UHGV virus genome: UHGV-1966638
Direction: 5' to 3' (one strand)
DNA from: a virus
DNA length: 16,064 nt
Shown here: piece after piece, positions 6,001-12,000 of the stretch
Position numbering within the stretch: position 1 is the stretch's first letter
Layout of the letters: each line of letters starts with the position of its first letter
Position numbers: made by a program

Positions 6001-9000
6001 GTTTTGTTTACCGGAAAAAGTGCCGCGATTAACGGTTATTCCGTGGCAGGAACGGCGGAAAGCTGGCGCGACAGCGTGGCGCGGCTGGCTGGTGGCAATC
6101 CGTTCATGATGCTGGGTATAGCGACGTCATTATCCGCGCCATTAGTCGGGCTGACAGGCGCTGATGGTTTTGGCGTGCATTTTTTCGAGCAATCCACAGC
6201 AGGCAAGACCACAACGCAGAGCATCGCGTCGAGCTTGTGGGGCGATCCTGAGGCGCTGCGATTAACCTGGTACGGAACGGCGCTGGGGATAGCTAACGAA
6301 GCAGAAGCACACAATCACGGACTCCTTCCACTGGACGAGATAGGGCAGGCAGGAAGCCCCCGTGACGTGTACGTATCCTCATACACTTTGTTCAATGGAT
6401 TCGGAAAATTACAGGGGGCAAAGGACGGCGGCAACAGAGAGCTGAAAAACTGGCGGACCGTTGCTATCAGCACCGGAGAGGTGGATATCGAAACATACCT
6501 CAAAACGTCGGGGATAAAAGTTAAGGTCGGGCAACTTGTGCGCCTGCTCAATATCCCGATTCAAAAAGCCACGCAGTTACACGAATACAGCAACGGAAAG
6601 GATCACGCTGACGCATTGAAGGCGGCATGGCAAGAAAACCACGGCGCAGCGGGGCGTGAGTGGATTAAATGGCTTGCGGAGAACCAGCAGGAAGCTAAGG
6701 ACGCGGTTAGAGAGAGCCGTGCACGCTGGCGAAATATCATTCCAGACAATTACGGTGAGCAGGTCCACCGCGTGGGTGAACGTTTCTCCATACTGGAGGC
6801 CGCGCTTGTGCTTTCCGGTCATGTAACTGGCTGGTCCGTGCAGGAATGCCGCGATGCAATTCAGTATGTATTTAATGCCTGGGTAAAAGAATTTGGCACG
6901 GGCAACAAGGAACACAAACAGATCATTGAGCAGGCAGAGGCGTTTCTTGCTGCCTACGGCATGAGCCGTTTTGCGCCCGTTGATTATGACCCAGCCAGCC
7001 TGCCGATTTCTGAGCTGTACGGCTACAGGGATTCGGGAAGCCGTTACGATGAACCATTGTTGTTTTACGTATTATCGGAGCCGTTTAAATCGAAAGTAGC
7101 GGAAGGCTTCAACAAGGATACCGTTGCAAAAATACTCCACGAAGCTGGAATGCTGAAACGACCAGAGAGCGGGAGAGGATGGAAAATCAAGACCCCACGC
7201 CTTAAGAACCTTAATGGAGCGCAATTATGGGCCTACGGGATGTTGTTCGCTAATCACGATGAGGAGGGAAGCGATTAACTACGCGTATATAAGATGAAAA
7301 AATGTTGCCTCAGTTGCCTCAGTTGCCTCAAACAGTAATAAATATATATATGTGATTGATTTATATGTTTTATTTCTGTTTTTACTGAGGCAACAATTGC
7401 TCATTTTGAGGCAACAATTACCCATTTTGAGGCAACAACTGCCCATTTTGAGGCAACACGGCTGACAGGTTTTGTTTGTCTGAACGGAACCAACGTGATG
7501 TTGCCTCAAATACCCCCTATTGTTGCCTCAAATCGACATGATGTCGCCTCAATTTTTTTGTGATTATTAATCAAATCAATACGTTAAGACGTTTGAGGCA
7601 ACTGAGGCAACTGAGGCGACTGAGGCGACACGTTTTTCCTATATATATAAAGCGTGTGAATGATGTGATGCCTGGAAGGAGACGATTCATGATCAAAAAA
7701 ACAAGTGAAACGGAATCTGTTGTGAGGTTCGTATCGGTACGAGGCAGAGCCACGCTTTATATACCTGACGAACATCTGCATCACTGCGATGAAAAACATA
7801 TCCCGATCCTGATTGTCTGGAAGCGAACGGTATACGCCGATGTGACATGGCTGAATGATTCGCTGATGTTGATACACCGTGACCTGTTTGAACGTGAAGA
7901 GTTCCGGCGGGATATTGAAGAGCGGGCAGAAAAAATCTATGAGAAATATTCAGCAAACAGCAAAAGATCCGCACGGGCAATCGCTCACCATTTCATGACG
8001 CTGTATGACCTGAAAGCGGAAGATGCAGAAAAAGCGGCATGTGATTTATTCGATATGACAATGGGGATTATCCAGGAGTACCGGAACAAGGAGCGCAGAC
8101 CATGACAGCACAGATTGCAGCTTACGGGCGGCTGGTGGACGACCCGCAGGTAAAACAGACCAGCAAGGGAACAGCGATGACGCTGGCGCGTATGGCGGTA
8201 TCACTGCCATGCAGTCAGGCACAGGACGGACAGGCGACGTTATGGCTATCAGTCCTGGCATTTGGTAAGCAGGCCGACGCGCTGGCGAGACATGAAAAAG
8301 GCGACCTTATCAGCGTGGCGGGTAACATGCAGATCAGCCAGTGGACCGGACAGAACGGGGAAACACGGCAGGGCTGGCAGGTTATCGCTGACAGCGTAAT
8401 CAGTGCCCGTTCGGTGCGCCCTGGCGGGAAGCGGGGGCAACAGGGGAAGGCGACTGAAGCACTGGAAAGAGCAAAACGACAGACCGGACAGCAGGGAAAT
8501 CAGCCACCAGCGGGAGGTGATGACCCGTTCTCTGACGATATTCCGTTCTGAATGACAGCACAACATGAACCAGCAGACCGACCGTTCACCAACAGAGGTA
8601 ATTCAAGCAACCTTAAACACATCATAGGAGGTGAACACGTTGATTAAAGACTATATCCATAAAAATGACAACGGACGACCTTTACAAGAGCCTGCAATCC
8701 CGTTGCAATGCCCCTTTCATCTGGTAAGATGCAGGGGCGTTTTTGCATGACTCAACGATCACCGATAGGTAAAAAATGTCCACACTTAAACCCGCCATCT
8801 TCTCTTTCTTTTCCGGCTCAGGTTTTCTAGATCTTGGCTTCGAAAACTCAGGCTACGAGGTGGTTTTTGTGAATGAATTTCACCCACCATTTATGGATGC
8901 TTACAAGCACTCACGAGCGGTGATGAACAAACCTATCCCACGTTTTGGATATGCAGAAGAGAGCATCGAGGAAGTTGATCACAATAAGTTGAAAGATAAT

Positions 9001-12000
9001 ATTAAAGCTCTCAAGAAAGAAAAAAGACTAATTGGCTTCATCGGTGGCCCACCGTGCCCTGATTTCTCCGTTGCAGGTAAGAACAAAGGTCGCGATGGAG
9101 AGAACGGTAAGCTGTCTCAAAGTTACATCAATATAATTGTTGAGATGAAGCCTGACTTCTTTTTGTTCGAGAACGTCAAAGGTCTTTATCGCACGCTCAA
9201 ACACCGTGAGTTTTTTGAGCATCTCAAAAAACAGTTAATGGACGTTGGTTACATCCTTCATGAAAGGTTAATAAATTCGATTGAATACGGAGTCCCGCAA
9301 GACCGTGAACGCATTATTCTGTTGGGTTTCCAAAATAAAAGTCTAACCAAGATCTTTAACTGGAGTGGAAGATTATACCCAGATAGTAGTGCTTTTGAAC
9401 ATAATTGGCCAACTACGAATGAATTTGTTGAGAACTCAACACTGGCAATGCCTGAGTCACTTCCTGAAGAGTTAACTGTTGACTACTGGTTTAGGAAAAA
9501 CAAAGTTTCTGAACATGTGAACGCAAAACATGTGTTTACTGCTAGGGCTGGGTTAGTTCGCTTTAAAGCTGTAGCTGAAGGGGACGATAGCAAAAAATCT
9601 TACAAGCGTCTTCATCGCTGGAGATATTCTCCAACAGCTGCTTACGGTAATAATGAAGTACATTTGCATCCATATAAGCCACGTAGAATAACAGTTGCAG
9701 AAGCACTTGCCATTCAGTCTTTACCGAAAGAATTCGAATTGCCATCTTACATGACTCTTTCAAATATGTTTAAAACTGTTGGCAATGGTGTTCCTTACCT
9801 TGCGGCTTTAGGCATAGCAAAATCCATATTAGAGCATTTAGGGATAAAAGATGAATTTAACAGCAATGAATCTTGTGAATGCGATAGCAAATCTACCCAA
9901 AAACAGGCAGTTTGATTATGTGAATGAAAGTAATGCCGGGAAGATTGTTATCGACTCGATTAAGTTACCAGAAGGCCCAATACGCTTTAAACGTTTCAAT
10001 CCAACCAAAGGTGAAACGCTCAGAGATGCCAAAGTTGATAGCATATCTAGCCAAATGCTATGGCGTTTGGCTAACGCAATTCAAGAGGATGCGCCTATCA
10101 ATTTAGATAGAGTATTCGGTGCAAGCTATAACTCTCGTTCAGTTATTGAAAGTTTGCTTGCTCATACACCTCAATTTTATTGGTGTAAACTCGACCGCTT
10201 AGAGGTTATTAATACGAAACAGACGATTAAAAAAGGCCACAAGCATCTTATATACTTACCGAATTTACCACATGAAAACGGCAAGCTTTCTGAATACAAA
10301 ACTAATATTGTAATATCAGAGATGAACACAGAAGTTGTATACCAAAGTGTTGATTCAGAAACAATCCGTCCAATTGAAGGCATGTCTATTGAAGAATCAA
10401 GAAGACATGCACAAATCCAGATAGCATTAGTAAAAATCGGTCATCATCTGGGATACAGAACATGGGTTGCAGCTAATGACCGAGGATTAAAATACAATGG
10501 TAAAGCAATCGCTCAAATGGATGGTGTCATTGACAGTCTGTCTAATGAAAAAGTCCTAAGTTCCTACAGCGAAGCCATTGCTGGCGCAAGATTGATAGAT
10601 TGCATCTGGTTTAGAAATGGTAAATTGATGCCTGCCGTGATGGAGATCGAGCATAGTACCGGAATAATAAGGGGTTTAGCACGTATGAAGAACTTCTGTG
10701 ATTATGCTCCCCGTCTGCAAGATATACGATGGACAATCGTAGCTCCAGATGAATATAGAGAAAAAGTAATTGAGTTTGCAAATAGACCACAATTTCGTGA
10801 GCTAGACACAAAATTTTTTCCTTACTCTGCCGTAGAAGAATTGTATTCTCTTTGTGAGCGCCGAAAGCCTCAAGGAATAACCGATCAATTCTTAGATTCT
10901 TTCATGGAAAAATGCATCAAACATTAAAAAAGCCGGGATAAACCCGGTTCTGATGACTAAATAGCTGTTCGGAATAGTAGATCACTTCGTATTTGAGGGA
11001 ACTCAATCCAGATTATGCGATCTGATCAATAACACAAATCCCAAATAAGCAAATCGGACTGAGCGATGTCGATACGTTTAACGATCTAATTAAGGCCGTA
11101 AAACTATTGACGACATGGGCGAAAGATAACTTGCGAGCAATATACCTCATGCACATCAAAGAAATGTCACAACGGAAGGCCTGATTTTAAAATCGCGTAA
11201 GAAATCTGCAATTACCCGTAGTGATTGCGGCTGACAGTAAGTCAGTTACAAAGTCAGTTACATATCGCTCCTGATGCACACATTCCGTAGGGCAACAATT
11301 CCCCGAAAAGTGCGCAGAAAACTGCGCAAATTCGATCATAAAACCGATCACAAAATCGATTATGCTGACCACCAGCACAAAGCCAGTAACGACGCGGCTT
11401 GCAGGGGGATAGACCACCTCAAAAAGTGCGCAAAAAAATGCGCATTTTTCTCAAAAACGAAACGCAACAGGAAGCGCAAAACGAAACCGATACGTGATGA
11501 TCGATTTTTTGTAAGTTACTTAAAGTAACCTACAAAAATGAACGTTTTTACAGAGCATAACCGCAACTCACAGGGGGACCGATGACCGACCGTTCACCAA
11601 CAGAGGTAATTCACGGGATTATTGAAGAACAGGAGGAGCGCGAGTTAATCCTCATGATTGAAGAGCAGAGAGAACGCCAGCGCAAACAGGAGTCCACGCA
11701 GCCGGACAGCGTGACCACTGAAAATTATGCGCGTGTTGTGGCTGGGGTGCCGTGATGGTGTCGAACTGAGTAACTTTAAGTAACCTTGTGACCAGTTTTA
11801 AACGAGTCGCAAAAAGAGCCGGAGAAAAACCACGAATCTGTGGTTTTTACTGAGCACGCTGTACACGGTGGAACATATGGTGGTCAGGAGACGGCAGGAG
11901 CAGCGACAGAACGCGGCTCCGTATCAGTGGCATAAGCCAGAGCCACAAATGAGGAATTTCAAAACCCCTTCTAAAGGTATTTTCATGAAAATCAGCCTTC

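Follow-up and report, generated by a model that had tools for sequence, protein, structure and literature searches.

The 16,064-nucleotide viral sequence UHGV-1966638 (the window, to which all coordinates refer) contains an E. coli satellite island of the phage-inducible chromosomal island (PICI) type at positions 1-13755. Downstream of the island gene for a single-stranded DNA-binding protein (SSB), two adjacent genes code for a predicted Type II restriction-modification pair, and a small gene of 57 codons and a Q-type antiterminator gene follow. The pair lies between two exact copies of the 30-bp sequence GACCGACCGTTCACCAACAGAGGTAATTCA, at 8576-8605 and 11584-11613, in direct orientation as the initial annotation had described. 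That annotation, made from the DNA sequence alone, interpreted the arrangement as the precise, hotspot-style insertion of a defence cassette into the small gene. Here we describe the locus and weigh how it arose.

The first gene of the pair (8776-9915, + strand) codes for a 379-residue C5 cytosine DNA methyltransferase, identified by Pfam, TIGR00675 and PADLOC matches and by motifs in the translation. The match to PF00145 (3.7e-53) spans profile positions 3-323 of 324, and that to PADLOC MTase_II (PDLC03355; 3e-164) runs end to end; the motifs PC, ENV, QxRxR and GNGV are intact, reading PPCPDFS, FENV, QDRER and GNGV. The second gene (9851-10927, +) overlaps the first by 65 nt and codes for a 358-residue NmeDI-family Type II restriction endonuclease, which matches PADLOC REase_II (PDLC03534) at 7e-124, with residues 2-356 aligned to profile positions 5-350 of 351. 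The NmeDI_C domain (PF27126) is present in the precomputed matches for this protein and for all 120 homologues listed, and the local Pfam copy gave none. The RefSeq name for the copy of the endonuclease at the leuX locus of E. coli (94.5% DNA identity) is 'type II restriction enzyme NmeDI-related protein'. A sequence search of the PDB with the endonuclease returned no meaningful match. By profile and domain match, the two proteins are an ordinary Type II restriction-modification pair of the known NmeDI family, and the defence-type module first proposed is thus borne out. The accompanying suggestion of a new specificity found no evidence, as the endonuclease belongs to a conserved family of at least 1,703 members with 53-65% identity across phyla. 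The 358-residue "hypothetical protein" in RefSeq copies of the island should be annotated as an NmeDI-family restriction enzyme.

R.NmeDI of Neisseria meningitidis is a 351-residue enzyme that cuts at (12/7)RCCGGY(7/12) and acts as a tetramer needing two sites (PMC2095814). The endonuclease described here resembles it in carrying NmeDI_C, in fitting the 351-position PADLOC profile from end to end and in being paired with a C5 methyltransferase. It differs in context, which is a phage satellite and not the Neisseria chromosome, and its membership of the family is set by profile and domain match. The recognition site is probably RCCGGY, as for NmeDI. By analogy with the family, the methyltransferase would protect host and island DNA at the enzyme's site, and the endonuclease would cut unmodified incoming phage DNA and would probably also stabilise the island through post-segregational killing.

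The pair differs in composition from its surroundings. Its A+T-richness, previously judged by eye, was computed: the G+C content (GC) of the pair is 0.40 and that of third codon positions (GC3) 0.32-0.37, against a GC3 of 0.53-0.61 in backbone genes. The individual values are GC 0.403 and GC3 0.37 for the methyltransferase gene and GC 0.384 and GC3 0.32 for the endonuclease gene. The entire insert at 8606-11290 has a GC of 0.400, compared to 0.495 and 0.464 for the backbone to its left and right, and 0.593 for the SSB gene. To judge from its sequence, the cargo is horizontally acquired A+T-rich DNA. Its right edge lies at ~11290, short of the right repeat. The claim that the repeats bound the cassette is therefore correct in that all of the foreign cargo lies inside them, but the foreign DNA ends at ~11290 and native DNA continues from there to the right repeat.

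The foreign segment is composite. Its largest part is a mobile restriction-modification unit (8643-10959, +) that is 94.5% identical to a leuX-adjacent locus in many E. coli, where it adjoins transposase remnants near tRNA-Leu. The core of the unit (8700-10914) recurs at 76-81% identity in elements of Salmonella, where it lies beside an integrase, of Proteus, at a prophage end, and of Leclercia, with vsr; homologues in these unrelated mobile contexts keep both the gene order and the 65-nt overlap. Homology in the other genera starts at 8700-8703, just 5' of a -35-like TTGCAA at 8704, which suggests that the unit carries its own promoter. The terminator-like hairpin of the endonuclease gene is directly followed by the left-end remnant of an IS630-family insertion sequence (IS) of the ISSpu2/ISEc33 kind (10952-11073, +). 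This remnant is 81% identical to the DNA immediately 5' of an ISSpu2 transposase gene and reaches the transposase start codon, with no transposase after it. The leuX-locus copy of the unit also adjoins a degraded transposase, and IS elements may have moved the restriction-modification unit. The remaining parts of the segment are two unassigned stretches, one of 37 bp between the left repeat and the mobile unit (8606-8642), present in cassette-bearing islands only, and one of ~220 bp that finishes the segment (11074-11290), present in cassette-bearing genomes only. An eight-of-nine in-register match (CATCAT.G) raised the possibility that 8606-8642 is diverged proQ sequence; since the DNA upstream is 100% identical, the match is probably due to chance and this origin was rejected.

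The right copy of the repeat belongs to the small gene (11582-11755, +), which is intact and native and codes for a 57-residue protein to which no function is assigned. This exact protein is found on 333 contigs, with NCBI and Logan entries among the members of its cluster. The region upstream (11291-11581, +) is island backbone and not cassette: it is 76-91% identical to islands that lack the cassette. Besides TGCGCA-N6-TGCGCA repeats and an 18-bp palindromic motif, it contains the native Shine-Dalgarno sequence of the small gene. Orthologues of the small gene with an identical start are present in three relatives of the island (L003, L004 and L005). Relatives without the cassette have the same Shine-Dalgarno sequence and ATG, and homology extends over ~290 bp upstream. 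The right repeat copy is thus a native gene start, and the proposal that the right end of the cassette supplies a new Shine-Dalgarno sequence and ATG does not hold.

A few further features surround the small gene. It is bracketed by an 18-bp near-palindrome (AGTTACTTAAAGTAACCT) at 11514-11531 and 11769-11786, and the conserved region upstream of it has two occurrences of the TGCGCA-N6-TGCGCA repeats, at 11301-11328 and 11417-11444; both kinds of sequence may be operator sites. Between the small gene and Q are two 63-nt direct repeats (12023-12085 and 12148-12210; 76% identical), each with a hairpin-like core. A possible origin of the upstream region as the remnant of an IS630 transposase N-terminus was rejected because the tblastn match is too weak (E = 0.026) and because the region is kept in islands that have no IS remnant.

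The left copy of the repeat (8576-8605, +) has a different structure. It is an orphan copy of nucleotides 3-32 of the small gene, and is preceded and partly overlapped by a proQ/finO-like remnant (8565-8579, +), which by alignment corresponds to nucleotides 1-15 (ATGAACCAGCAGACC) of the gene located after SSB in the relatives. GACC at 8576-8579 is common to the proQ-like start and the small gene and forms a microhomology, and unambiguous derivation from the small gene is confined to 8580-8605 (26 nt). The order is thus proQ-like nucleotides 1-15, passing through GACC into nucleotides 3-32 of the small gene, then foreign DNA from 8606. As read from the sequence, the junction forms a chimeric open reading frame (ORF) of 20 codons (8565-8627, +), MNQQTDRSPTEVIQATLNTS, with its stop codon at 8625-8627. 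The truncated copy of the small gene noted after SSB in the initial annotation is therefore present as a fragment of 26-30 nt, but its ORF starts at 8565 rather than 8566 and is fused to the 15 proQ-like nucleotides. The Shine-Dalgarno region upstream of the remnant (8552-8564) carries a 3-nt deletion in all cassette-bearing islands relative to relatives without the cassette: the relatives read GACAGGAGCACAACATGAACCAGCAGACC, and the loss of GGA changes GACAGGAGCAC to GACAGCAC. Since this Shine-Dalgarno sequence lacks 3 nt, the 20-codon ORF is most likely dead, and is probably an untranslated scar.

Comparison with relatives that lack the cassette shows what usually occupies this position. Over 4232-8579 the backbone is 97% identical to L003, L004 and L005; this homology ends at 8579 and resumes at ~11291-11297. 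In between, L003, L004, L005, L022 and L024 carry a ProQ/FinO gene starting with ATGAACCAGCAGACC, two to three PerC-family genes and a hypothetical gene, and the conserved ~290 bp follow. L022 has extra cargo in the form of a PemK/MazF toxin (L022:7784-8218), and L024 has YeeE/YedE where the small gene would be. A further relative, L023, carries another restriction-modification pair, an HTH-domain C5 methyltransferase and an EcoRII-C/SsoII-like endonuclease (L023:3497-6053; GC 0.30-0.40), which is inserted within another gene at another position in the accessory region. In L003, L004, L005 and L023 the conserved region leads into the small gene, which has its own Shine-Dalgarno sequence and starts with ATGACCGA(C/A)CGTTCACC or a close variant. 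Because the cargo differs among relatives, the region between SSB and Q is a space for variable cargo and does not consist of cassettes that share one bounding site.

On this comparison, the change is a substitution of the usual proQ/finO-perC cargo and not the precise insertion into the small gene that had been proposed: ~2.3 kb of proQ/finO and perC genes (2331 bp in L004) have been replaced by ~2.7 kb (2717 bp), leaving the island 386 bp longer. The near-constant island size may reflect a packaging constraint. We place a probability of roughly 0.75 on the following account: an acquired Type II restriction-modification pair, together with its own short upstream region and trailing IS630-family debris, replaced the proQ/finO-perC module, and the 30-bp repeat is a scar of that event. 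The repeat is, on the structure of its two copies, most likely a mark of rearrangement and not an attachment or docking site for cassettes, and it should not be annotated as an att or cassette site. The locus adds a documented case in which cargo for regulation or virulence (proQ/finO, perC) has given way, in a PICI-type satellite, to a module for phage defence or addiction, and a cargo swap at near-constant island size is consistent with the present view of satellites as vehicles that carry defence genes between hosts.

A two-step route is the origin that we favour for the observed junctions. The foreign block would first have entered the small gene after nucleotide 32, generating a long duplication of ~320 bp that comprises the upstream region and the first 32 nt of the gene, either through the process described for restriction-modification units (PMC2853133) or through single-crossover integration of a circle. 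A deletion at the GACC microhomology would then have eliminated proQ and the perC genes along with most of the left duplicate. Although this is the most likely history, its exact order, duplication followed by microhomology deletion, is tentative, with odds below even. The alternative is a single complex event that included a templated patch of 26 nt, for which, as for the two-step route, no intermediate was found.

Direct repeats and IS remnants often border restriction-modification units, and long target duplications, with a threshold of >30 bp, have been described for them (Furuta et al. 2010, PMC2853133). The present locus is similar in that both genes lie between direct repeats, the segment is smaller than 20 kb and of lower GC than its surroundings, and an IS remnant adjoins the genes. 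It differs in several respects. The repeat is exactly 30 bp, at and not above the threshold, and the proQ-like remnant accounts for four of its bases as well. Part of the inter-repeat DNA is native, the comparison genomes indicate substitution instead of a clean empty site, and the left copy is fused to a gene remnant. The locus therefore falls outside two of the criteria for long target duplication, namely a duplication of >30 bp and inter-repeat DNA that is entirely foreign. For a third, a comparison genome with one copy of the target and both flanks aligned, the only candidates are the six short ENA metagenome contigs described below. Given the native DNA inside the repeats, we reject a simple insertion that duplicated 30 bp of target.

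Some observations weigh against replacement with a scar. An intermediate that keeps the full-length left duplicate was not found, and the order of events was not observed. Apart from the IS630-family end, no source for 8606-8642 or 10960-11290 was found in plasmids, phages or the homologous loci of Salmonella, Leclercia and Proteus. In addition, an in-frame fusion protein of 60 residues, predicted as the product of a 3008-bp deletion between the 30-mers, was found by exact look-up in a collection of 15 billion proteins. It is encoded on six ENA metagenome contigs (among them L034-L038) of 612-3157 bp, each with a single 30-mer, from assemblies that include ERZ773508, ERZ28645874, ERZ27265665, ERZ27246558 and ERZ1303458. 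Should these cassette-less contigs be real, the 30-mers act as recombination substrates and are more than a passive scar, and the locus would provide a natural example for studying how restriction-modification units are lost through repeats.

The cassette-less contigs also bear on the possibility that a true insertion took place, in which the 3008-bp segment entered a pre-existing fusion gene (MNQQTDRSPTEVIHGII...) right after SSB and duplicated 30 bp, so that these contigs represent the unoccupied or precisely excised site. Contigs of sufficient length have the gene order hypothetical-SSB-60aa-Q, and the set is 99.5-99.8% identical to the window with 8606-11613 removed, as such a site would be. 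Both repeat copies are in the same reading frame, and long target duplications are known for restriction-modification units (PMC2853133), although the 30-bp duplication here does not exceed the threshold given there. The inter-repeat segment is not simply foreign, because 11291-11583 is native backbone that is homologous to cassette-less relatives. An artificial empty site, built from 200 nt of left-hand sequence with the left 30-mer among them and the 200 nt after the right 30-mer, had no contiguous match in 5,426 complete E. coli genomes. The 20-mer spanning the left junction gave only a chance match in species-representative genomes and, in metagenome contigs, only the cassette-bearing form (L008); the junction between repeat and insert had no match in viral contigs. 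The 60-residue protein has no NCBI or Logan source and no isolate genome, coming from short ENA metagenome contigs only, two of which have SPAdes coverage labels of 1.4 and 1.9. Polymorphisms at 12010 and 12089 nest the cassette-less contigs within different cassette-bearing sublineages, so that they are not ancestral. Overall, a true insertion into a fusion gene is quite improbable.

The same nesting is the pattern expected if the cassette were lost recurrently and independently. Under such a scheme, RecA-type recombination between the 30-mers would occasionally delete the cassette or free it as a circle, allowing reversible carriage or amplification: the unit and the native upstream region would loop out, perhaps to re-enter or amplify, and their loss would leave the in-frame 60-aa fusion gene. 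The expected circle junction is ...GGGGGACCGAT, the 30-mer and AGCAACC... in that order. The repeat copies are exact in every cassette-bearing locus examined, and the scheme fits a proposed life cycle in which units invade with direct duplication, amplify through the repeats and are released (PMC2853133). If true, the satellite carries a self-mobilising restriction-modification unit, a kind that has been proposed but never directly shown. On the other hand, de Bruijn collapse at the 30-mer combined with tip clipping at low coverage predicts the same nesting, and every cassette-less contig is short and metagenomic. None occurs among the isolate assemblies that hold the native 57-residue protein, and loss of the unit should be counter-selected by post-segregational killing. 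We regard active recombination between the 30-mers as unlikely, and think that the cassette-less contigs are somewhat better explained as an assembly artefact of this kind than as recurrent deletion.

Finally, the 30-mer could be a site-specific hotspot, integron- or att-like, at which a recombinase recognises the repeat and swaps defence cassettes between its copies. Cargo between SSB and Q does vary across islands, comprising proQ/perC, PemK/MazF, YeeE/YedE and two different restriction-modification pairs. Nevertheless, in the 5,426 complete E. coli genomes the 30-mer bounds this cargo alone. The exact sequence is present in only six of these genomes, three of them cassette-bearing with two copies and three of them relatives with one copy at the start of the small gene, so that it is not a common repeated element either; an exact pair of 30-mers in 16 kb has a chance expectation of ~1e-10 (our own estimate, not tool-derived). 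The left 30-mer is missing from its position in all cassette-less relatives, the restriction-modification pair of L023 lies elsewhere in the region and has no flanking repeat of at least 24 nt, and the only recombinases in the window are the integrase at the opposite end of the island and the one that belongs to the adjacent element. A hotspot, and with it the initial expectation of alternative cassettes between the same repeats, is very improbable.

Target sites of the NmeDI family are scarce in the island. RCCGGY occurs at two sites (1962 and 4540), against ~9-12 expected (12.2 by the base composition of the entire window, ~9 by chromosomal density), a shortage shared by relatives without the cassette. 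CCGG itself has a normal density, with 37 sites in 1-13500, but 31 of the 37 are in the asymmetric context RCCGGA/TCCGGY; YCCGGR is absent from 1-13500, and CCSGG occurs once in the backbone. The flank classes of backbone CCGG sites are biased (Fisher p = 1e-6), and six-base palindromes overall number 117 against ~157-166 expected. The CCGG-context bias is also seen across L003, L004, L005, L022 and L023 and is missing from the flanking chromosome, and since these relatives lack the cassette, the bias pre-dates its arrival. To judge from family membership, the depleted sites likely include targets of the island family's two restriction-modification pairs, RCCGGY being the likely target of the NmeDI-like pair and CCNGG that of the SsoII-like pair, with CCSGG as the part not covered by Dcm.

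The island as a whole (1-13755, +) has the order int, alpA, rha, c4/icd, DUF4222, DUF927 primase, iteron origin, hypothetical gene, SSB, cargo, small gene and Q. The integrase gene int (1-1215) forms its left end. AlpA matches PF05930 and a PHROG excisionase/regulator, and the primase matches phrog_1139 at 4e-141. The origin (7286-7668) consists of GTTGCCTCA iterons at 7286-7333 and 7591-7647 that flank AT-rich DNA (39-43% GC). SSB (8102-8551, +; PF00436 at 3.8e-16) is the last backbone gene before the accessory region. Homology to island-bearing genomes stops at 13755, and the island is located at tRNA-Gly in three complete genomes. Its size of ~13.8 kb is within the range of about 10-15 kb for such satellites, and the RefSeq annotation of the identical island has no structural or lysis genes. 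The exact endonuclease protein is found in 321 blocks of an assembly collection, with the same island neighbours in 10 of the 10 places listed.

PICIs of Gram-negative hosts include EcCICFT073, EcCIEDL933 and EcCIMP1, and the criteria by which they are recognised have been set out (PMC6092414, PMC11773190). On structural criteria, the element at 1-13755 is a PICI-type phage satellite: it runs from int and alpA to a primase followed by an origin with two iteron sets around an AT-rich stretch, its relatives carry PerC-family cargo, and its defence cargo is downstream of the primase module. PICIs are known to house immune systems both at their ends and in an accessory region that follows the primase gene (PMC11364771), in agreement with the earlier statement that islands of this kind are known for such cargo. 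The present element differs from them in that its family also has SSB, a c4/icd-like module and a Q-type antiterminator, and in that a restriction-modification unit has taken the place of the perC/proQ cargo in the island studied.

Several other features of the island and its surroundings were observed. A C4 antisense RNA (Rfam RF01695, 77.7 bits) at 4106-4193 lies inside a 504-residue ORF (2904-4418) that RefSeq labels 'Icd-like'; this long reading frame is probably an over-call, and its locus resembles a P1-type c4/icd immunity module. A stretch of ~200 bp from the iteron/origin region (7475-7668, with GTTGCCTCA repeats) is duplicated at 13266-13441 with 91-94% identity, placing a second origin-like copy downstream of Q near the right end of the island, and the duplication is also present in relatives. 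In metagenome contig L008 (ERZ773241 NODE_7325), position 3993 is joined to 8029 through a 12-nt overlap, which leaves it without the primase, the origin and neighbouring genes while the cassette is kept; this contig represents a deletion variant or is chimeric. The DNA beyond the right end of the island (13756-16064) differs from the three complete genomes and contains a second tyrosine recombinase gene (531 aa, 13890-15485) followed by a gene of unassigned function, which suggests that a second element is integrated in tandem.

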